A DNA stretch of 64,000 nt from GCF_054482525.1 NZ_CM137006.1; one strand, 5' to 3'; numbered from the stretch's first letter, positions 5,662 through 61,993 are shown. The notes: generated by a model not told the origin, from the sequence alone. Made by a program: numbers and translations.

Positions 5662-7014
5662 ATGAGCCAGAAATTAAAAGTCGTCACTATTGGTGGCGGG
5701 AGCAGCTATACCCCGGAGTTACTGGAAGGATTTATTAAGCGTTATCACGAATTGCCGGTCAGCGAATTATGGCTGGTGGATGTCGAAGGTGGTAAAGCTA
5801 AACTGGATATTATTTTTGATCTCTGCCAACGGATGATTGATAACGCTGGCGTCCCGATGAAGCTTTATAAAACGCTGGATCGCCGCGAAGCATTGAAAGA
5901 TGCTGATTTCGTTACTACCCAACTGCGCGTAGGCCAATTACCGGCGCGCGCACTGGATGAACGTATTCCATTAAGTCATGGTTATCTTGGTCAGGAAACT
6001 AACGGCGCGGGCGGTCTGTTTAAAGGTCTGCGTACCATTCCGGTGATTTTTGACATCGTAAAAGATGTCGAAGAACTTTGTCCGAATGCATGGGTGATTA
6101 ACTTCACTAACCCGGCGGGAATGGTCACTGAAGCCGTTTATCGTCATACCGGATTTAAACGCTTTATCGGCGTGTGTAATATTCCGATCGGCATGAAGAT
6201 GTTTATTCGCGATGTTCTGATGCTGAAAGACAGCGATGATTTATCTATCGATCTGTTCGGCCTCAACCATATGGTGTTCATTAAGGATGTGCTGGTAAAT
6301 GGCAAATCACGCTTTGCCGAATTGCTTGATGGTGTGGCATCCGGGCAGTTAAAAGCATCTGGCGTTAAAAATATTTTCGATCTGCCATTTAGCGAAGGCT
6401 TAATTCGTTCTCTGAATCTGTTGCCGTGTTCTTATTTGCTTTATTACTTCAAGCAAAAAGAGATGCTGGCTATTGAAATGGGCGAATACTACAAAGGCGG
6501 CGCACGAGCGCAGGTAGTACAGAAAGTCGAGAAACAACTTTTTGAGCTGTATAAAAACCCGGAGTTGAAAGTTAAGCCGAAAGAACTGGAACAGCGCGGT
6601 GGGGCTTATTACTCTGATGCAGCATGCGAAGTGATCAACGCTATCTACAACGACAAGCAAGCTGAACATTACGTTAATATCCCGCATCATGGGCATATTG
6701 ATAATATTCCGGCAGACTGGGCGGTAGAAATGACCTGTACGCTGGGGCGCGATGGCGCGACGCCACATCCGCGCATTACGCATTTCGATGATAAAGTGAT
6801 GGGGCTGATTCACACCATTAAAGGCTTCGAGATTGCTGCCAGCAACGCCGCACTTAGCGGAGAGTTTAACGATGTGTTACTGGCCCTAAACCTTAGTCCG
6901 TTGGTGCATTCCGATCGCGATGCTGAGCTGCTGGCACGCGAGATGATTCTGGCGCACGAGAAATGGTTGCCAAATTTTGCCGACTGCATCGCAGAGCTTA
7001 AAAAAGCACATTAA
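5662..7014 (+). CDS. chbF: 6-phospho-beta-glucosidase (GH4, NAD/Mn-dependent)
   Basis: 450-aa ORF, N-terminal KVVTIGGGSSYTPEL Rossmann motif of family 4 glycosidases. Confidence 0.9.
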   Translation: MSQKLKVVTIGGGSSYTPELLEGFIKRYHELPVSELWLVDVEGGKAKLDIIFDLCQRMIDNAGVPMKLYKTLDRREALKDADFVTTQLRVGQLPARALDERIPLSHGYLGQETNGAGGLFKGLRTIPVIFDIVKDVEELCPNAWVINFTNPAGMVTEAVYRHTGFKRFIGVCNIPIGMKMFIRDVLMLKDSDDLSIDLFGLNHMVFIKDVLVNGKSRFAELLDGVASGQLKASGVKNIFDLPFSEGLIRSLNLLPCSYLLYYFKQKEMLAIEMGEYYKGGARAQVVQKVEKQLFELYKNPELKVKPKELEQRGGAYYSDAACEVINAIYNDKQAEHYVNIPHHGHIDNIPADWAVEMTCTLGRDGATPHPRITHFDDKVMGLIHTIKGFEIAASNAALSGEFNDVLLALNLSPLVHSDRDAELLAREMILAHEKWLPNFADCIAELKKAH

Positions 7015-7785
<771 letters not shown>

Positions 7786-53200: not shown

Positions 53201-53338
53201 CGTGTAATGGCTGCATGAAATAAACAATAAAATATAAATAACATTATCAGCCTGCCGACGGCTTGAAGAGAGTCACAGTATCTTGTGCAACATTATTGGA
53301 AAGCGTGAGGGGCGAGGTAGCGAAGCGGAAAAATGTTA

Positions 53339-53443
53339 AAAAAAAGCCCATCGTGGGAGATGGGCAAAGACTACACACAGCAATTCGTTGTTTCACTCAG
53401 GGGATTTAAGTCATTGATTGATTTATGGGTATGCGGTTTTTCG
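53339..53443 (-). ncRNA. rprA: sRNA RprA (3' ~69 nt canonical, 5' end divergent)
   Basis: Minus strand 53407->53339 reads AAAUCCCCUGAGUGAAACAACGAAUUGCUGUGUGUAGUCUUUGCCCAUCUCCCACGAUGGGCUUUUUUU (rpoS-pairing region plus terminator); the 5' end coordinate is extrapolated from the expected length. Confidence 0.7.
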
Positions 53444-53472
53444 GCATAAACCAAATTAAGCAAGGCTTGAAA

Positions 53473-54054
53473 ATGGACACACAAATTGCACACATATCGC
53501 ACACAAATAAAAAGGGGTATGTATGGCGCAAGCGTTATGAAAAACGCACGATTGAAATCATCCTACGCACCCGTGATAAATCAATTGCCATAAAAAGAGC
53601 GGCATCAATAACAATTCGCTATATGGAATTAAAATCACTTGACGTTCCATTTAAAGCAATGCTGGAAATGTTAAAAAAGTTTCGTGATGGTCTGATTACG
53701 TCACATGACATTGAGCGCTTAAGGTCGATTGCGATAGCTTCACAGGAAGCTCCACACGCCGCTGTAACCGCTTCGCCTATACAAAGTGTTGGCTATGATG
53801 TCAAAACCGCTCAGAAAGCCGCACAGGGGCATTCCCTTGGCGATGCTCAAAAAGTGTACTTTGGCGCCAACACCGAATGGAAAGAAAAAACCATCAAGGC
53901 TTATTCTGGTTGTATCGACCGCTTTATTTTATGGTGCGCTAATAAAAATATTCATACCGTGGAAGAAATAACGAAAGAGCATGTGATTTCATTTAAATCC
54001 AGCATGGATGAAGAAAAATTAGCCTCCATGACTAAATTTCGCATAATAATATGA
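53473..54054 (+). pseudogene. Tyrosine-recombinase (integrase)-like N-terminal fragment; catalytic domain absent
   Basis: ORF ends after a SAM-like core-binding segment (TIKAYSGCIDRFILWCANKNIHTVEEITKEHVISFKSSMDEEKLASMT); no downstream RHRY catalytic domain; start uncertain (53425/53473). Confidence 0.4.
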
Positions 54055-54362
54055 TTCGGGTTAGCATAACCAATACTTTTATTAAAGCCTATGTATGCAC
54101 CAATTTCTTTATACTTTAACTTAGTGAAATCTGAAATAATACTCAGTGGCTGCAATACGTTATGTCCATTGTGCGCCCCTTCATTAGCGCAAAATCCTGT
54201 ATTTGCAAACTGACCTTTATCACGCCAGATGAATCTATCAACGCCGCCACATACAGGACATGGTGTATGTTCATTTGGTTTAATATCAATTCCAAAATCA
54301 TTCATATGCACCAATGGATTCTTTTTAATATAATTATTCAAATCAGTAAAGAAATTAGCCAT
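53952..54362 (-). pseudogene. Primase N-terminal zinc-ribbon fragment (P4-alpha/T7-gp4-type CPxCGG..C), truncated
   Basis: HTPCPVCGGVDRFIWRDKGQFANTGFCANEGAH zinc-ribbon signature; ORF stops after about 135 aa and overlaps the integrase fragment on the opposite strand. Confidence 0.45.
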
Positions 54363-54681
54363 TATATTTGCTCCCGTATCGCCTTGCTGGATGCTTTGCA
54401 AAGAAATCAACGATATCTTGTTTGCGATACCAGATATAACCGTCTAATTCATGATGAATTTCTTGCGGAAATTCTTTAGGGTTAAAGCGTTTGGCGGCAT
54501 AAAACATTGGTTTAGTAACACCAGATAAAGCAATTGCATCATTGCCACACACAAGCCCTGTAAGTTGCACTTTCTGCGATTGTTCTTTTATCTGTGCCGC
54601 GATTAGCCTTTTATTCTCATTAACGTATTTTTCAATCTGTAGCTTACGCATTTTTTCGCGCATGTAATTTATATCGGTCAT
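54355..54681 (-). CDS. AlpA/excisionase-like DNA-binding protein
   Basis: 108-aa ORF; C-terminal segment TKPMFYAAKRFNPKEFPQEIHHELDGYIWYRKQDIVDFF resembles AlpA-family HTH. Confidence 0.5.
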   Translation of the reverse strand: MTDINYMREKMRKLQIEKYVNENKRLIAAQIKEQSQKVQLTGLVCGNDAIALSGVTKPMFYAAKRFNPKEFPQEIHHELDGYIWYRKQDIVDFFAKHPARRYGSKYNG

Positions 54682-54697
54682 TTTAGTATCCTATATA

Positions 54698-56200
54698 TTA
54701 AGTCATTATCTGTGCTGGTGGGGTAATGATATGAATTATCCCTCGATTATTCATAATGAATCTACATCGTTCAAGCCCTGTAATTGCTCGCTTTATATTA
54801 TTTGGCTGCATTTTATACTCAGTTTTTAATGCCTTCGTTAAATCGGATTCATGTACACAGCCATCAGCACTAAATTCCATTAACTGTATTATCATTTCTA
54901 AAACTCGTTCTTGTGCTGGTGCATTTTTCTTTTTTAACTCGCTCATATATGAGTCGTAAGCGAGAGTATTATTACGCGCAGCATTTTGAGTAAAATTAAC
55001 TCCTGCTTCATATGATTCTGCATTTACAGCGTTTTGCATTAATTGCTTATTTTGCTGTTGCGTTGTTAGTGGTTGCCGCTGTTGCGTGTGCATTTGCGCA
55101 TAATCATTTATCGGTGATTGCTGCATGATAAATGGTTCATCATTAGCTTGTTTGCGTTCTATTTTTCCTGCTGCAATTACTGGAGTTGGCCTATCAATAA
55201 ATACCAACGTCTTAGTATTGGCGTTTACCTGATAACCTTTTGCATTTTCTTCGGGATAATCGCATAATTCATTATTAATATCATGTAATTCACAGACGGT
55301 AATTCCGTTATCCGCTGTGCATAAATCAAATTGCATCACTGGTAATTTTGCAGCGCTACGGTTTTTTTCGATAGTGAGTGATACGGATAACCCAAAATCA
55401 TTACCCTGCATTTGCTCTAGTTTAATGACTGTATCAGAGTCATTTTTAAGGGTAATGGCTCCTTTCATACCTTTAGCCGCATCTTTGCCGCCGTGGTGAA
55501 CCATCAAGACAAAAGAATTTGTTTCTACTGCAATTCTTTTCAAAATCGAAATCAGCTTACGCATTGCAATAGCATCATTTTCATCAGGATTTTCCATATC
55601 CAAAATGGTTTTTCCATCAATGCTTTTTTTTGTGTAGTATGCCAAAAATGAAGAAAGCGTATCAAAACAAATGATGCCGCCTTTGTTATTGGTGATTTTA
55701 TTTACATCATTTATTATTCGATTCTGTATTTCTTTATCAAATAAGTTTATTTGTGGTGACAAGATGTGCATTCTGTCATTTTTAACGCCACTATTAAACT
55801 TATTAGACCACGCTGTATTTCGATCTTTGATTTCAACGCCTGTTTCACCATCAAAATAAAAAGCATGGCATTCTTTAGCAACTCGCAAACCAGCCCACGG
55901 TTTACCCTGTGCAACTCTGTTTAAAAGAGATAATGCCGCAAATGATTTGCCTGTGTTGGATTCACCATAAAGGAAGCCGACCTGTTTTCGGTTAAATAGA
56001 TTTTCAATTACAGGGCGTAACCGCTTTTCTGATTGCAATTGAATTTCAGCTAATTCAATTGCACACAATTCATCATTTATACCATCATATTCAGACCACT
56101 CACCGTAGTTGGCGGGTGCGTAATAATCAATCGCGAGAGTGTAATAATAATCAGGAATAGCAGACCAATCAATAAACATTCCTGTGCACATATCATTCAC
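54698..56200 (-). CDS. RepA-like/RecA-fold P-loop ATPase (replicative helicase-type) with C-terminal putative winged-helix domain
   Basis: 500-aa ORF; Walker A GESNTGKS, Walker B-like IICFDTLSS, LMVHHGGK; adjacent iteron array. Confidence 0.6.
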   Translation of the reverse strand: MNDMCTGMFIDWSAIPDYYYTLAIDYYAPANYGEWSEYDGINDELCAIELAEIQLQSEKRLRPVIENLFNRKQVGFLYGESNTGKSFAALSLLNRVAQGKPWAGLRVAKECHAFYFDGETGVEIKDRNTAWSNKFNSGVKNDRMHILSPQINLFDKEIQNRIINDVNKITNNKGGIICFDTLSSFLAYYTKKSIDGKTILDMENPDENDAIAMRKLISILKRIAVETNSFVLMVHHGGKDAAKGMKGAITLKNDSDTVIKLEQMQGNDFGLSVSLTIEKNRSAAKLPVMQFDLCTADNGITVCELHDINNELCDYPEENAKGYQVNANTKTLVFIDRPTPVIAAGKIERKQANDEPFIMQQSPINDYAQMHTQQRQPLTTQQQNKQLMQNAVNAESYEAGVNFTQNAARNNTLAYDSYMSELKKKNAPAQERVLEMIIQLMEFSADGCVHESDLTKALKTEYKMQPNNIKRAITGLERCRFIMNNRGIIHIITPPAQIMT

Positions 56201-56247
56201 CGTAATTTGGGTATTTAATTAAGAAAAATTCAATTACTTCTTCTTTT

Positions 56248-56400
56248 TTATATAGATGCTTTGTTTTTTTTGTTTTTATCGCAAGTAACTAAATGCTCTT
56301 TTGGAAATTCTTTAGGGTTAAAACGTTTAGCCATATAAAAAGCGGTTGAGCCAATTTTAGCCAAAAGTTGTGCTTCACGAGGTGTAATTAAGTCGCTCAT
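56248..56400 (-). pseudogene. Second, truncated AlpA-like copy (50 codons)
   Basis: MSDLITPREAQLLAKIGSTAFYMAKRFNPKEFPKE...; DNA about 56305-56340 is an imperfect duplicate of 54473-54510; ends in a poly-T/A tract. Confidence 0.35.
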
Positions 56401-56689
56401 GTAGGGTATCTCTTAGATGTATTCTGAGTGCGGTCATGGTAGGCGAGGGGAGGAATAGCGGCAAGCATTACCGGATATAGTAAGCACTACCAGCTAAAGT
56501 CTAACTAACTGTCAACAGATTGAGGCTAAAACCACTGTATGTAAATTCAATTTTAAAAATTAAAAATCATTCTGGCTTAACTAATTATGCTCAATTTAAA
56601 TTGAATCTGATAATAAAAAGAATCAATAAAATGGATTTAGTGATTTTTAGTTGGACGAAATCGTTCATTTTATGTGCATTGCTCGCTGG

Positions 56690-56925
56690 TGATAATTCAA
56701 CCAATCCATTCAACCTATTCGAATGGGTGGTGAATTTTTGACCGAATTAAATTCACCTGAATATTCACCGAATGATTCACCTGAATCATTCAGCCCTTCA
56801 TTCACCACGAAACCCAGGCGCGGCGGGGCTTACAGGCCGATTCATTCACCTGAATATTCACCTGAATATTCACCTGAATTATTCAACCAAAAATTCACCT
56901 TCATATTCACTCATTCACCTCTCTA
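56690..56925. repeat. Iteron array: at least 9 TTCACC hexamers, including tandem palindromic 12-mers ATTCACCTGAAT
   Basis: TTCACC at 56751, 56763, 56775, 56800, 56844, 56856, 56868, 56893, 56913; three exact tandem 12-mers at 56843-56878. Confidence 0.65.
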
Positions 56926-57236
56926 TAAATAAGCATTGGAATGCTTTTTATAGAGGTTGATGAATGAAGGTCGTTCAAGTGAATGAACTGTGAGTTGGGT
57001 AAACCCCTAGGGGTTGGGGGTGTTGTCGATTTGTGGTAAATTCCTTCTGCCAGCGTGAAAAAGGCGCTGGTGGGGATTTGCAGCCCCAAACAAACAAAAC
57101 CATTGGCAAGGAATTGCCGATGCGCGTGCGCACGTCAGTTATGGCGGTCACGGCGAGGGAGTCGAAAGGCTCGCCAGTTTTGTTTGTTTGCTGGTACTGC
57201 AAACCTCGTCGTGATCGTCACCACGGGGATGCATGT

Positions 57237-57488
57237 ATGCAGGAAACAGACTGGCACAAAGCGGATATTCTTGCCTCTTTAAAGAAAAAGAAAATCAGCA
57301 TGGCGGGATTATCCCGTGAACATGGTTTATCAAGTAGCACGTTGCTAAATGCACTTAGTAGAGAATGGCCTAGAGGCGAATTAATTATTGCTAATGCAAT
57401 TGGTGTGTCACCTCAAGAAATATGGCCTTCTAGGTATTTTGAAAAAGATGGCTCTCCAAAAAATCGTGTGATTCGTAAACCTGTTTAA
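57237..57488 (+). CDS. Ner-like DNA-binding protein (Mu Ner / Nlp family)
   Basis: 83 aa MQETDWHKADILASLKKKKISMAGLSREHGLSSSTLLNALSREWPRGELIIANAIGVSPQEIWPSRY matches the Ner family signature; upstream in-frame extension of track ORF judged non-coding. Confidence 0.7.
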   Translation: MQETDWHKADILASLKKKKISMAGLSREHGLSSSTLLNALSREWPRGELIIANAIGVSPQEIWPSRYFEKDGSPKNRVIRKPV

Positions 57489-57705
57489 ATAAGTCAATGC
57501 GTCTCTGATTAAAAGGGGCGCATTTTTGTTTTTACTGACTTGTTGCAATGTGGGATATGTTGCGCACGTGTGTGCGATAGTTGTTAATTGTTTTTTGTAC
57601 TAGTTAACAAATACGAATTTTCTGAGGGTGCTATTTTGGGTTTTAGCTGCGGCTTCGCCTTGCTGCCCTTCGGGCTGGTGGTGCAAGAAGAATGTTTGAA
57701 AACTT

Positions 57706-57751
57706 CCTTTTCTTTGCTTCACCAGCCCCGTAGGGGCGTGAGCGTAGCGAA
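57706..57751 (+). repeat. 46-bp direct repeat, copy 1 (identical to 61912-61957)
   Basis: ccttttctttgcttcaccagccccgtaggggcgtgagcgtagcgaa; contains hairpin GCCCC-GTA-GGGGC. Confidence 0.85.
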
Positions 57752-57849
57752 CCTAATCACTTTGATTTTGACACATATCGGTTCTATCATTTTCAGGAAA
57801 ATCATCATAGAATTATATAAAACATACGATTTTTAAGGTGAATTTTTAA

Positions 57850-59001
57850 ATGCACGAGAAAGCGCAAACAAAAATAAAAGATACTATTAGAGAAATACTA
57901 ATCACTCCAGCAATCGCTTTTACTGGTCGTGCAGGTCATTTTGATTTTTCATTATATGAAGTTTTAGCAAATGAGCTTAACAAAAGAAAGATAAAGTTTA
58001 AAATTGATAAATTATCATGTTGGATTATTTTTGATGGCGCAAAAAAACATTACTTTCAAGATAAATCAATTACTGACGCACAAGCGATAAATGATTTTGT
58101 GGATACGTTATGTAGTATTTACTGTGAAACACCTATGGATTACTCCATCGATTTTCACTTTAGAAATTTAAAAATCGATATCAACCCGATTGATTATGAG
58201 TTTGTTTCAATTAGAGCGGGTGAGGATATTGGTATTGGTTTGTTCGCTGAAAAAGAAAAGTATGCGATTGCGAGCATTAAAAAGAATGGCTATCTTTCAG
58301 GTGGTTATCCTAGCTCATTTATAAAATCGATTTTGCAAGATTTGAAAATCTTCATTTTTTTGATTAAAAGCATTAATTTGATTAAGACAGGAAAAACCAA
58401 TTTAGCATCCACGTTATTTCAATCGATGTCCGGTCATGCTGACACAATTAAGATTGATTGCGTTAATGTTAAATATCCTTGGATGAATAGCAGTGTCCAT
58501 ATTTCAGAGTCGGTAGGGAAATTTTTACACAACTTTATCTTCAATTATGAATTTGAAGAAGGCTACATTATAGAAAAAATAGATCATTCGCTTCAGCTAA
58601 TGAATGCAATAGTAAAAGATGAGTCAAAAGAAGCCTTGCGTATCAAGGCTGCAATTGATTGGTTGGTGCAATCTGAAATCACTGATGATGAAACCATGTC
58701 TTTTATTCAAATTTGCATGGGGCTTGAATCAATTTTTGGTGATGATGATTATGAGGGTGGCCTAACAAACATACTATCTGATAGATGCGCCTACTTAATA
58801 GGGAATAAAATTAAAGAGAGGAGATTTATAAAGGACACATTTAAAAAAATATATCAAGTTAGGTCAAAGATAGTGCATGGCGTAAGAAATCATTTATCAG
58901 ATGATGAATTATATTTTAGGCATTTAGCATATTCATATTTAGAGCGTTCTATTCTAAAAGAAATTCAAAATTTAGACCTGCAATCCCATCAGGCGACGTG
59001 A
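57850..59001 (+). CDS. Hypothetical 383-aa protein with C-terminal HEPN-like R-x4-H-G motif (candidate Abi-type RNase)
   Basis: Long AT-rich ORF with SD aaggtg 11 nt upstream; RSKIVHG at residues 338-344 (nt 58861-58881) in a helical C-terminal domain. Confidence 0.65.
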   Translation: MHEKAQTKIKDTIREILITPAIAFTGRAGHFDFSLYEVLANELNKRKIKFKIDKLSCWIIFDGAKKHYFQDKSITDAQAINDFVDTLCSIYCETPMDYSIDFHFRNLKIDINPIDYEFVSIRAGEDIGIGLFAEKEKYAIASIKKNGYLSGGYPSSFIKSILQDLKIFIFLIKSINLIKTGKTNLASTLFQSMSGHADTIKIDCVNVKYPWMNSSVHISESVGKFLHNFIFNYEFEEGYIIEKIDHSLQLMNAIVKDESKEALRIKAAIDWLVQSEITDDETMSFIQICMGLESIFGDDDYEGGLTNILSDRCAYLIGNKIKERRFIKDTFKKIYQVRSKIVHGVRNHLSDDELYFRHLAYSYLERSILKEIQNLDLQSHQAT

Positions 59002-59288
59002 AGCTTGTGCGCTTCATTATGGGGCTAGCCGCCATCAGGCAAGGCGATTGCATGTCTTTGCGCTTCGTCGCCTCCTGATGCGTTCTGTGAAGATGTCGAT
59101 CATTTAGTGAGCGCGGCGGATGTTGCTGATGGATAGTGTGGATGCAACTGAACCATACCGCGAAAAGTGGCAGGATTGCGCCGGAATCGTACCGCTAGCA
59201 GGTGTTGAGTGTAAGAAGTAGTGATTGGGTGAAATGAAGATAGAAGGCCGCATAGAGGCATACAACTAGCCTTATGCGGTTGGCTGGT

Positions 59289-59732
59289 TCAGCACTGGTA
59301 AAAGTTGGCGAGGTGTGGAATATGGCTGGTGGTGGTTTCGAAAGCCTTGAGGCGTCCATTTTTATCTTTTTTCAAGTAGAGCATTTTTAGTGCTGGTGGA
59401 AATACTGAATCCATAATTCCATAAACTCCCACATTTTCGTTTTCTTCTTTAAGCATTCCCCAATATTGATAACCATTTAATGCGCTATCATCAATGCCCG
59501 TTCCAACGCGCTTAATGTGGGCAAGATATCGGCCTTTTATCGTAAAGCTAAATGATTCATCACGTTCATTTGTGCAAGTGTAAAATCCATCATCGCTTTC
59601 ATTTATAACTTCAGATGCTTCACGATTTAATGAGTACTTGTCTAAGTTGTTTATGATGTCACTTCGCTGTGCGCATCCAGTCAAATTTAGAATGGTAAAA
59701 ATTAGTACAGAAGATGCAAGATATTTGTTCAT
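59289..59732 (-). CDS. Hypothetical lipoprotein (147 aa)
   Basis: MNKYLASSVLIFTILNLTGC signal peptide plus lipobox; start at internal ATG 59732. Confidence 0.6.
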   Translation of the reverse strand: MNKYLASSVLIFTILNLTGCAQRSDIINNLDKYSLNREASEVINESDDGFYTCTNERDESFSFTIKGRYLAHIKRVGTGIDDSALNGYQYWGMLKEENENVGVYGIMDSVFPPALKMLYLKKDKNGRLKAFETTTSHIPHLANFYQC

Positions 59733-59818
59733 TTTGATTATCCATATGAAAAGCAAGGTACTTAGATTAAATTACCCTGCTTAAGCAGTAATTAGCGGTT
59801 CCGTTAATAGAGGGTAGA

Positions 59819-60178
59819 TTATTTGTTAATTTGTTTTTTAGTGTGTGAGATAAAATTTCTAAGTAAATCTTTTTCAATTACAATTTCACATTTTAGGTTT
59901 TGGCTATCGACCGCATCAATTCTATCAAACCAAAACATTAATTCCTGGCTTGCATCGCATTTACGTTTGAATTTAATTGCCCTGCCGAATTTTTCACTTA
60001 AAGAATCATCATCACATAAAAAATAAATTTTATTATTAATGGTGATTTGAATTAAATATGTCTTCCTCGTTAGGTAATCTAACCTTTCGTTAGCTTTCAG
60101 TAAGTTAGCTTCAGCTTGTTTGATGCGTATAAGAGCATCCTCTTTGCTTAAAGGGGATGTATTGACAGACTTGATCAT
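59819..60178 (-). CDS. Hypothetical protein (119 aa), upstream partner of the lipoprotein gene
   Basis: ORF co-oriented with and 62 bp upstream of the lipoprotein gene; no recognisable family. Confidence 0.5.
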   Translation of the reverse strand: MIKSVNTSPLSKEDALIRIKQAEANLLKANERLDYLTRKTYLIQITINNKIYFLCDDDSLSEKFGRAIKFKRKCDASQELMFWFDRIDAVDSQNLKCEIVIEKDLLRNFISHTKKQINK

Positions 60179-60287
60179 AATTTAATCCTTTGGTTAAGAT
60201 TCATCAAAAATATGCCATAAATAGCCTTGAAGGTTGTGTGGAATACATATTATGATAGCTTCATCTAATCAGCAAGGGGAATAATAG

Positions 60288-60443
60288 ATGCCTTCTAAAC
60301 GTGTTATATGCTCACTTGATGAGCAAGAGTTAGATATTCTCGAAAAATATAAATTACATTATAAAAATATGCATGGCGTAAAATTAAACAGAACGGCAAT
60401 TATCAAAATGTTGATTAGTCGTCTATCAAAAGAAATTCAATAA
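60288..60443 (+). CDS. Small putative ribbon-helix-helix (CopG/Arc-like) regulator, 51 aa
   Basis: MPSKRVICSLDEQELDILEKYKLHYKNMHGVKLNRTAIIKMLISRLSKEIQ: beta-strand then two helices pattern; divergent from the minus-strand pair; below ORF-track cutoff, found by own reading. Confidence 0.45.
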   Translation: MPSKRVICSLDEQELDILEKYKLHYKNMHGVKLNRTAIIKMLISRLSKEIQ

Positions 60444-60495
60444 TAATTCTAATTACCAATTAATTTAAACTTCACATAATTAAAGAGGCAACTCT

Positions 60496-60810
60496 ATGCA
60501 CACTCTTTTTTCTAAATTTAAAAACAGGAAAATTAAAATGTATCAACCACGTTATAAAAGCAGAATGATTGACGATAATGAATATAATCAGGTGCTTCAA
60601 TCGAGAATGCAAAATCTTTTAAATCAATATAATAATGAGGTTTCAAACTTAACCCGCATTGGTGTTACAAATTTGGGTTTCGGCCGATGGGATAATGGAG
60701 AGAGCAAAATCAATAACCACGTTAATAAAGTAAGTGAGACTTTGGAAAAGATGCAATCTACGCAAGCCTTGATTGATGCTCTTGCAAATGAAATTACACA
60801 AACTAATTAA
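60496..60810 (+). CDS. Hypothetical small protein A (104 aa)
   Basis: ORF with SD aaagagg 8 nt upstream; AT-rich. Confidence 0.5.
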   Translation: MHTLFSKFKNRKIKMYQPRYKSRMIDDNEYNQVLQSRMQNLLNQYNNEVSNLTRIGVTNLGFGRWDNGESKINNHVNKVSETLEKMQSTQALIDALANEITQTN

Positions 60811-60894
60811 TCGAATGGGGGATGCTTTAAATGGTAATCGCAATCATGGTTGTAATGTTTTGGGCTTTCCTGATTCTTAAAGAGGAAATGAAAT

Positions 60895-61179
60895 ATGGTT
60901 AAATTTGGAGTGTTTTACCATCATGCATGGGGTGATGGTAAAAAGGAAATCCCGCCACCTGATTTAAATTACATCCGAACCGATCCACATAAAAATAATG
61001 AAATTGCTTTAGATGTTTTTGATTCAAGAATGGACGCACAAAAACGCGCTGATTTACTAAATTCACGCATGGCAAAAAATCAAACTGGTCAGCATTATGT
61101 TGCGCCAACAACGCAAGAAACCAAAACGGCTCAAAAGCGCTTTAAGTTTCCTTGTACTAGCATTTATGGGTGGAAATGA
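60895..61179 (+). CDS. Hypothetical small protein B (94 aa)
   Basis: ORF with SD aagagga; N-terminus KFGVFYHHAWGDGKKEIPPPD resembles that of protein C. Confidence 0.5.
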   Translation: MVKFGVFYHHAWGDGKKEIPPPDLNYIRTDPHKNNEIALDVFDSRMDAQKRADLLNSRMAKNQTGQHYVAPTTQETKTAQKRFKFPCTSIYGWK

Positions 61180-61181
61180 AA

Positions 61182-61556
61182 ATGAGTAAACAATTCGGTG
61201 TTTTCTTTTGGCGAAAAGGTGACGCTATTACCGATATCCCGTCAGATAAAAATGTTGCAAATCGCGGAGTAAAGCCTAAGCGCATTTTTTCAGATTATAT
61301 TGATGGAATGCGATATAAAGATAAAATGAATGCAACAATTCCAGCGGCGCAAAAAGGTAAATATGAATATGTATTAGCGGAAATTGTTGAACCAGACCCG
61401 AACAATACAAAGGTGTTGTTTAAATCTGGAAATTTAACAGAAGCATTAAGGGCGAAGCGACAAACAACCGAACAAATCAACCGAAATAAAATTGATGCAA
61501 TGATTAAAGAAGCCGCACACGATTACCTTTACACTATTACAGGAATGGAAAAATGA
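61182..61556 (+). CDS. Hypothetical small protein C (about 125 aa; start at ATG 61182 or 61176)
   Basis: QFGVFFWRKGDAITDIPSDKN N-terminus paralogous to B; abuts stop of B. Confidence 0.5.
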   Translation: MSKQFGVFFWRKGDAITDIPSDKNVANRGVKPKRIFSDYIDGMRYKDKMNATIPAAQKGKYEYVLAEIVEPDPNNTKVLFKSGNLTEALRAKRQTTEQINRNKIDAMIKEAAHDYLYTITGMEK

Positions 61557-61852
61557 TTATTGACGAGCGATTTATTAAATGGTCAATGGTGCTGGTGGAG
61601 GCCGGAAAGCCATCACCCAGCCTCGCGGGGCTTTATAAAGGAAACACTAAAGGATTAATCTTTTATAAAACACGTGAATTGGCATCAAATGCAGCCACTA
61701 AACGGAATGAGCAATTAGCAGGAACTAAATCAACCAGCCGATTTAAAATCATTAAATTGCATGACGCAGAAGCACAACAGAAACATGATTTTCAGTTAAA
61801 ACAGGAACGCCAGCGCCGCGATGCACGCCATATGCGCCGATTTGGTTTCTAA
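61553..61852 (+). CDS. Hypothetical small protein D (99 aa), basic C-terminus
   Basis: Start ATG overlaps stop of C (ATGA), indicating translational coupling. Confidence 0.5.
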   Translation: MIIDERFIKWSMVLVEAGKPSPSLAGLYKGNTKGLIFYKTRELASNAATKRNEQLAGTKSTSRFKIIKLHDAEAQQKHDFQLKQERQRRDARHMRRFGF

Positions 61853-61911
61853 ATATAACTCAATAACTCAACCAATGGTGATGTTAAAGAATAAGGTGGC
61901 CTTAAATTTCA

Positions 61912-61957
61912 CCTTTTCTTTGCTTCACCAGCCCCGTAGGGGCGTGAGCGTAGCGAA
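61912..61957 (+). repeat. 46-bp direct repeat, copy 2 (identical to 57706-57751)
   Basis: Same 46-mer, 37 bp upstream of the tape-measure-like ORF. Confidence 0.85.
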
Positions 61958-61993
61958 ATAAGTAACATTAATATCAAATCAGAGGTAAATAAA

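Follow-up and report, generated by a model that had tools for sequence, protein, structure and literature searches.

A GC-rich intergenic segment of an Escherichia coli chromosome was found to be a single-copy, non-coding piece of a rare integrated island of enterobacteria. The segment is part of the island backbone and forms the constant right edge of a slot for cargo genes, and it is not a partner of the HEPN-annotated gene that fills this slot here. The properties conserved in it are composition, length and strand asymmetry. We tentatively propose, with somewhat less than even confidence, that the segment is a transcription boundary, wherein hairpins at both ends and a Rho-loading tract would end a leftward lipoprotein operon.

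A non-coding unit between convergent genes

The DNA analysed (the window) is a stretch of 64,000 nucleotides from this E. coli chromosome (GCF_054482525.1, NZ_CM137006.1), and it is identical to strain PCN033 over the BLASTN query. A profile made from 13 related copies (nhmmer, E = 4.6e-73) places the bounds of the unit at 59029–59285, close to the 59005–59285 given in an earlier note that was made from the sequence alone. The unit spans 257 bp with about 52% GC and is present in one copy per island. The description in the earlier note holds. The segment is GC-richer than its flanks (0.545 at 59000–59199 and 0.505 at 59100–59299, or 0.51–0.55, versus 0.30–0.37), no ORF of at least 60 aa is present (the longest ORFs that touch it have 53–54 aa), the flanking genes are convergent, and both quoted arm pairs of two imperfect inverted repeats are found in the sequence.

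The upstream flank is the HEPN-annotated gene (RefSeq annotation; 383 aa, 57850–59001, + strand), a variable cargo outside the unit whose protein carries an R-x4-H motif and shares 41% amino acid identity with the copy in strain S10. The downstream flank, convergent with the cargo gene, is a lipoprotein-like gene with the lipobox LTGC (59289–59732, − strand), and its product is 36% identical to the S10 copy. Together with a 119-aa gene (59819–60178, − strand) it makes up a two-gene leftward unit, of which the lipoprotein-like gene is the last member.

Inverted repeats lie at both ends of the unit. The left one (59033–59080) begins about 30 nt past the HEPN stop codon and has arms catcaggcaaggcg at 59033–59046 and cgcctcctgatg at 59069–59080, with an inner AGGCG/CGCCT stem and an apical part of 22 nt. 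The right one is a GC-rich hairpin on the − strand (59248–59279; arms ccgcatagaggc at 59248–59259 and gccttatgcgg at 59269–59279), which lies about 10 nt past the lipoprotein stop codon and is followed on the − strand by CCUUCUAUCUUCAUUUC. This is likely the 3′-end hairpin of the lipoprotein mRNA.

In the alignments, the best-conserved block is CGCCTCCTGATGCGTTCTGTGAAGATGTCGATCAT at 59069–59103, whose motif TGAAKNNNTNGRTCRY is present in 11 of 12 copies. A second conserved block, TTGCGCCGGAATCGTACCGC at 59176–59195, was recognised from alignment and spacing; the distance between the two is constant, with a 106-nt span in 8 of 10 copies. Between them is a Chi-like octamer, GCTGATGG (59125–59132, + strand), which differs from Chi (5′-GCTGGTGG-3′) at a single position. 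Exact Chi is absent from the segment of the window, with the next two exact copies at 59325 and 59392, and occurs at the homologous place of the unit in 7 of the first 13 variants. When 9-mers common to the segment and the rest of its island were sought in ten islands, only Chi-containing ones were shared in five of them, and other shared 9-mers were limited to two or three closely related islands. A 34-nt stretch (59156–59189) is absent in strain FREC5, where it was deleted between two TACCGC direct repeats.

Occurrence in a syntenic island

Among 5,426 complete E. coli genomes searched by BLASTN, five carry the segment, always at this locus. Carrier strains include PCN033, SCU-102 and 19KM1776. 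Three of these copies are identical, that of FREC5 has the 34-nt deletion and that of S10 is about 72% identical. The earlier note had considered a fragment of a core gene captured during rearrangement and had proposed BLASTN as the check. This search identified no known gene, the E. coli matches being the island itself, and there was likewise no match in 50,697 phage records (three variants of the segment as queries), in 72,556 plasmids or, for conceptual translations, in Pfam. Pattern scans gave no match in viral contigs, one identical copy in metagenomes, and one true match (Phytobacter) plus three chance matches in species genomes.

Relatives were gathered by searching with the HEPN protein, by looking up contigs, by the pattern scan of species genomes and by querying viral contigs with the 119-aa protein. 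This yielded 15 related loci with 14 distinct variants, and a profile search finds the unit exactly once in each. The variants come from Escherichia, Citrobacter, Salmonella, Enterobacter, Klebsiella and Phytobacter and from one IMG/VR contig, and all lie in the same syntenic island.

The unit and the HEPN gene do not occur strictly together. In a Phytobacter locus (L020) the unit is kept and HEPN is replaced by an unrelated 133-aa ORF, and in the IMG/VR contig (L022) the unit is kept beside a small hydrophobic ORF in place of HEPN. The profile search finds no unit elsewhere in the window or beside the HEPN homologues L012, L015, L016 and L017; HEPN homologues that lack the unit sit in Edaphovirga, in a metagenome contig and in Pseudomonas prophages. 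Because the unit is kept without HEPN and is absent beside HEPN genes outside the island, it is part of the backbone, and an antitoxin-like RNA partner of HEPN was rejected for this lack of co-occurrence.

The cargo slot runs from an HTH_35 gene to the segment (57850–59001 in the window; about 6740–7704, − strand, in L020, with the 133-aa ORF at 7254–7655; 4690–4890 in L022). It mostly holds the HEPN-annotated protein, the N-terminal two thirds of which are very variable. HEPN homologues are also found directly beside integrases in Pseudomonas prophages, in Klebsiella and in decayed E. coli islands. Further variable cargo, a PIN_12 gene, is seen at the right end in L003, L009, L011 and L013.

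No sign of a coding function

One + strand frame is free of stop codons for 58–77 codons in six of the first 13 variants and for 122 codons in a seventh, L010. The frame is broken early in the copy of the window and in those of FREC5, L006, L011 and L020, and among the first 13 variants it has no start codon in common. Indels of 34, 8 and 2 nt separate the variants, and the column entropy of their alignment reveals no 3-base periodicity. Conceptual translations match no Pfam family, and a search of 5.8 billion proteins with the 122-aa translation of L010 returned only itself, that is, a gene call on the same DNA. A coding gene, a pseudogene and a recognisable gene fragment were therefore rejected for want of a shared start, periodicity and homologues.

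Fast divergence and held composition

The conserved look of the segment is misleading because both flanking genes are hypervariable, and the proposal that it is conserved beyond these flanks (HEPN and lipoprotein) was withdrawn after comparison with the 119-aa gene. Mean pairwise identity is 0.62 in the segment versus 0.70 at third codon positions of this gene, and invariant columns make up 0.24 versus 0.35 (ten taxa). The segment diverges at least as fast as synonymous sites of the neighbouring gene, and there is no evidence for strong constraint on its sequence as a whole. The invariant columns are clustered (p = 0.0005, six taxa), possibly owing to a small number of constrained blocks or to recombination, as seen in the mosaic of L020.

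The mosaic copy (L020, 6480–6737; Phytobacter) is nearly identical to the window type over its left ~155 nt and is of the S10/L006 type in its right part. The switch lies near TACCGCCAG, where FREC5 has its repeat-mediated deletion of 34 nt, and points to recombination inside the segment.

All 14 variants have a GC content of 0.46–0.55, versus GC3 values of 0.29–0.34 in island genes, and their + strands contain 26–34% G and 16–24% C. Length is 256–268 nt in 13 of the 14.

These values bear on the possibility that the segment is a decaying relic with no present function, such as an old ORF or foreign GC-richer DNA that was fixed in the ancestor of the island and can still be aligned by shared descent. 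Divergence equal to or above that of synonymous sites would be expected of such a relic, and a + frame that is open in 6 of 13 variants (to 122 codons in L010) and broken in the rest resembles the neutral decay of an old ORF. The + strand excess of G over C also matches the coding-strand bias of + strand genes, and the terminal branches carry a net excess of GC-to-AT changes. However, this excess (122 GC-to-AT versus 81 AT-to-GC polarised changes) is well under the ~2.4:1 expected under free decay to the GC3 level, a comparison that is indicative only, as the sequence pairs overlap and significance is overstated. A relic would also have had to hold 46–55% GC in 14 of 14 variants at about 38% divergence, to undergo few indels at near-constant length, to maintain its hairpins through sequence turnover and to be kept through cargo replacement, and it has no homologues at the DNA level (E. 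coli genomes, phages and plasmids) or at the protein level. We consider this origin unlikely.

RNA structure and RNA families

A small RNA was another suggestion of the earlier note, to be checked by structure-conservation analysis. The analysis lends it little credit. Rfam 15, searched with the whole window, gives no match to the segment at the gathering score, and the best hit in an E-value search of 58900–59400 reaches 14.6 bits versus a cut-off of 42 bits. A scan found no promoter-like site in the segment. The structure conservation index is 0.09 on the + strand and 0.06 on the − strand, and the alifold energy is no better than that of column shuffles (z of −0.9 for the full unit and −0.5 for its middle, with a weak signal at the left hairpin on both strands).

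Folding of single sequences yields a similar picture. The z-scores of −1.1 (+ strand) and −0.7 (− strand) are not beyond chance for the composition, and their mean over 13 variants is about −1. The fold energy of the − strand RNA is −64 kcal/mol versus −87 kcal/mol for the + strand, and − strand z-scores are about −0.7 to −1.5. The RNAalifold consensus amounts to −6.9 to −7.2 kcal/mol over ~260 nt, and in averaged base-pair probabilities only the left inverted repeat and the right hairpin recur, equally on both strands. A large conserved RNA fold is unsupported, and a large structured RNA was rejected since alifold, averaged pair probabilities, shuffles and z-scores are all weak.

A functional RNA read from the + strand could also be a more modest entity, namely a 3′-UTR element of the cargo transcript or a small RNA derived from its 3′ UTR. 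Such an RNA would be GC-rich within an AT-rich element, like the C4-type RNA region of the same island (57137–57225), and G-U pairing is favoured by the surplus of G relative to C in that strand. In the alifold structure, 88% of cells are paired versus 84% in shuffles, and pairs changed on both sides number 10 versus 5.2 in shuffles (0/500), in both cases for a structure drawn from the same alignment. Moreover, 94% of cells retain a long-range pairing of 7 bp (GAUCAY/GUGAUU), mostly by wobble-compatible changes. Against this stand the small consensus energy, just −6.9 kcal/mol per 260 nt, the low conservation index and shuffle z-scores, single-sequence z-scores of about −1, and pair probabilities that back only the end hairpins, alike on both strands. 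A second alifold helix is broken without compensation in the L007/L008/L013 group of the alignment, and a promoter-like site, a hairpin plus U-run and an Rfam family are all lacking. We judge a + strand RNA of this kind to be quite improbable.

The C4/CI-type antisense RNAs of P1, P7 and P4 (RF01695) are similar to the segment in that it forms a GC-rich patch in AT-rich DNA, and one C4-type RNA is encoded in the same island. Unlike these RNAs, the segment matches no Rfam family, is not complementary to the C4 loop and lacks a conserved fold.

A candidate transcription boundary

The remaining suggestion of the earlier note, convergent terminators, is the one closest to the evidence, and it stands in part. 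A hairpin follows the lipoprotein stop codon and a rut-like leftward tract is present in 14 of 14 variants, but the pattern of an intrinsic terminator is missing. This pattern, a G+C-rich hairpin with a loop of 3–8 nt followed by a U-run, was sought at 56800–60400, and no instance lies inside 59005–59285 on either strand. In the right hairpin the loop measures 9 nt and the tail is a mixture of C and U. Neither end hairpin fits the pattern of the scan, and both were rejected as intrinsic terminators.

The hairpins themselves persist. In every variant a GC-rich hairpin lies past the lipoprotein stop codon, with sequence, loop and register that differ between groups, so that structure is maintained here despite sequence turnover. 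The left repeat has 86% of cells paired, with many single mismatches and few compensatory changes.

The rut-like tract is a C-rich, G-poor run of the leftward transcript (59057–59385, − strand), the longest such run in the island, which covers nearly the whole unit and ~100 nt at the end of the lipoprotein gene. The excess of G over C on the + strand is held at ~50% GC, and therefore the leftward transcript is at its most C-rich and G-poor within the island at this place. In 78-nt windows of the leftward RNA, C/G rises to 3.0 (99th percentile of the island) and C to 38% (99.7th percentile), while G falls to 12%. The corresponding values across all 14 variants are C/G of 1.9–3.5, 32–41% C and 9–19% G. 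No window of the + strand RNA passes a filter of at least 30% C and C/G of at least 1.5 in any of the 14 variants. G also exceeds C on the + strand island-wide, and the skew is thus partly non-specific to the segment.

We also applied the RUT step of RhoTermPredict through our own regex re-implementation. All variants pass, with 31–147 windows on the − strand RNA and 0–6 on the + strand RNA, under a C>G criterion that is permissive and a regular-C criterion (every 11–13 nt) that is weak at 35% C. RhoTermPredict is a program that over-predicts. Its model calls for a 78-nt window with C/G above 1, scored highest above 2, and with C every 11–13 nt, followed within 150 nt downstream by a pause site that is either a GC-rich hairpin with a loop of 4–8 nt or the element G−11 G−10 Y−1 G+1 (PMC6407284). 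The left inverted repeat (59033–59080) lies at the distance of this pause site, with an apical part of 22 nt versus the 4–8-nt loop of the model. The leftward RNA of the segment has no conserved ORF or periodicity and folds weakly, in keeping with the untranslated and weakly structured state that the model presupposes.

The steps that lead from this composition to Rho action are inferred. Two convergent units would meet at the segment, with the cargo gene (HEPN in this case) reading rightward and the lipoprotein/119-aa operon reading leftward. Ribosomes would stop at the lipoprotein stop codon (59289), and Rho would then load on RNA that is untranslated, C-rich, G-poor and weakly folded, ending the leftward transcript ahead of any antisense read-through into a toxin-like cargo gene. 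Once the transcript is trimmed, the GC-rich hairpin immediately past the lipoprotein stop codon could provide a stable 3′ end. Dar and Sorek, in 2018, reportedly observed that Rho-terminated transcripts are trimmed back to an upstream stem-loop. Leftward RNA polymerase may pause at the left inverted repeat, which may instead or in addition form the 3′ hairpin of the cargo mRNA. The Chi or Chi-like octamer would simply be the share of the segment in an island-wide excess of Chi, and not the reason for its existence.

Rho suppresses antisense transcription and is frequently active on AT-rich DNA of horizontal origin, toxic prophage genes among it, and Rho-dependent transcripts undergo extensive processing of their 3′ ends (PMC12360218, a review). 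The segment resembles the Rho-dependent terminators (rut tract plus upstream 3′-end hairpin) that close operons in horizontally acquired E. coli DNA in several ways. Its untranslated C-rich, G-poor tract continues for far more than 78 nt past a stop codon, conservation concerns its composition and not its sequence, and a stable hairpin without a U-run stands between stop codon and tract. It also sits where antisense read-through into a toxin-like neighbour would start. However, a segment that is GC-rich for its surroundings and has a near-constant length, conserved blocks and a Chi site differs from what rut sites need. A rut site requires neither 50% GC, near-constant length and fixed block spacing nor clustered invariant columns, which counts against the action of Rho as a full explanation.

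The surrounding island

The island is about 11.6 kb long, bears an integrase gene and is inserted in the small-RNA gene rprA. A full RprA copy is present at 53336–53456 (Rfam), and a second copy is found just beyond the window end in PCN033. The gene order is integrase and primase (both truncated here), AAA_25-type helicase (− strand), iteron array, C4-type RNA, HTH_35 gene, HEPN-annotated gene, the segment, lipoprotein-like gene (− strand), 119-aa gene (− strand), and a rightward operon that ends in a tape-measure-like protein. Other Rfam matches at gathering score, expected there, are confined to the host part of the window (1–53300) and comprise the Phe leader (24684–24808), STnc540 (28504–28662) and ES036 (755–797).

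The copy of the island in the window looks defective. When 53425–54410 is compared with 161–2924 of L002, the integrase has ~190–210 aa (401 aa in relatives), no GIY-YIG gene is present, and of the primase just the zinc-binding end is left. Intact versions occur in strains FREC5 and S10.

An iteron-like 12-bp repeat, ATTCACCTGAAT, is present in ~9 copies in two clusters (56751–56911), between the leftward replication genes and the C4-type RNA. These repeats look like iterons of a replication origin, and their TTCACC core presumably recalls the type-1 repeat of the P4 ori. The segment, which has no internal repeats, was rejected as a replication origin given these iterons.

The C4-type antisense RNA (57137–57225; RF01695, 65.8 bits) carries a loop with an exact 14-nt complement, CAAACAAACAAAAC, at 57087–57100, 37 nt upstream on the same strand (0.07 expected by chance). 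This RNA and its target recall seqA/seqB of P4 and the c4 targets of P1. The complement lies there and none is found in the segment, and the latter was dropped as a target of the C4-type RNA.

A 61-nt repeat occurs at 57706–57766 and 61912–61972 (89% identical), upstream of the cargo gene and of the tape-measure-like gene, and also near the integrase end in L006, L008 and L014. Its role may be that of a regulated promoter or terminator, or it may be a mobile repeat. A longer repeat unit, at about 57665–57756, forms the left edge of the cargo slot. This unit is imperfectly palindromic and contains the small GC hairpins GCCC-TTC-GGGC and GCCCC-GTA-GGGGC, and each of its arms bears a Chi or Chi-like octamer.

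The tape-measure module (61182–63982) consists of two small overlapping ORFs (124 and 99 aa) followed by the gene of a 662-aa protein. This protein has matches to tape-measure families (PHROG, E = 3.5e-21; in relatives, Pfam Tape_meas_lam_C) and no tblastn match at 1e-10 in the 50,697 phage records. No capsid or terminase genes are recognisable in the island. Our literature searches found no description of this island; among the literature searched, no satellite type is described that is ~11 kb long and has its own tail-length module but lacks recognisable capsid and terminase genes.

Six Chi sites (GCTGGTGG), all on the + strand, are located at 54714, 57066, 57674, 59325, 59392 and 61591. They fall within 10.5 kb of 38%-GC DNA (53457–64000) in which 0.36 would be expected (third-order Markov model; none of 300 simulations reaches six), and the 53 kb of host DNA in the window contains four. 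Chi is also in excess in the related islands L002, L003, L005, L006 and L014, and several sites occupy conserved non-coding places. Such a load suggests either exposure to RecBCD during a linear or rolling-circle DNA stage or cargo exchange stimulated by Chi.

A possible site acting as DNA

The same features invite another view of the segment, as a cis-acting DNA site read by proteins. It might be a cos- or pac-like packaging site of a phage satellite or a recombination anchor of the cargo slot. The unit persists as a backbone element whichever of three cargo genes adjoins it, its left boundary, (T)CAGG(Y)AAGG, is sharp, and its near-constant length, fixed block spacing and clustered invariant columns would suit such a site. 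Its position at the edge of a cargo slot parallels that of the defence hotspot near the cos site of P4-like satellites (PMC11364771). The iterons (56751–56911), the C4-type RNA and att (at rprA), which are cis elements too, occupy other places in the island. The richness in co-oriented Chi sites fits a linear or rolling-circle DNA stage, and seven of the first 13 variants have Chi within the unit. Both the mosaic of L020 and the repeat-mediated deletion of FREC5 fall within the unit.

Divergence at or above the level of synonymous sites, however, is unlike that of a site recognised by proteins, and FREC5 lacks most of the second conserved block in an island that otherwise looks intact. Similarity is absent to the 50,697 phage records, to prophages of the 5,426 E. 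coli genomes, to plasmids and to the P4 cos. No lambda-type or P2-type cosN exists anywhere in the island within 2–3 mismatches, and no terminase-like gene was recognised in it. Overall, a site of this type seems rather improbable to us.

The cos region of P4 is comparable in that the segment is non-coding and GC-richer, lies in an integrase-bearing element of ~11–12 kb and adjoins a slot of swapped cargo. In contrast to the P4 and P2 cos, it has no sequence similarity, no cosN and no constraint at the level of sequence. The island departs from P4 in other respects as well, since its helicase is unrelated to P4 alpha (the only replication gene compared) and it has six Chi sites where P4 has none. 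Mimicry of a cos site was rejected on the lack of a lambda or P2 cosN, of similarity to P4 and of a phage tblastn match for the tape-measure-like protein at E ≤ 1e-10. These comparisons concern a cos site copied from a helper of the lambda or P2/P4 type, and the helper may be of another kind. Resemblances to oriT, XerCD/dif-like, IHF and Ner sites were dropped, as no match was seen by eye.

Discussion

Our findings carry a caution for the reading of intergenic DNA. A non-coding patch may seem conserved beside hypervariable neighbours, and the property that is conserved can be composition rather than sequence. Taken alone, the segment has little weight, being most likely an insulator at the end of an operon that prevents antisense transcription into a toxin-like cargo gene. 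It is ordinary in kind, and its held GC content and length are only partly explained. It is doubtful, yet conceivable, that the segment is instead an essential cis site of an undescribed family of phage-satellite-like islands, either a new packaging or processing site or a fast-evolving RNA with a shape beyond the reach of the present alignment. If so, it would mark the fixed edge of a swappable defence-gene slot in islands that integrate at rprA and are equipped with a C4-type immunity RNA, iterons, a tape-measure-like module and an unusually large number of co-oriented Chi sites. The island itself is more unusual than the segment and is possibly a new kind of satellite or integrative element.
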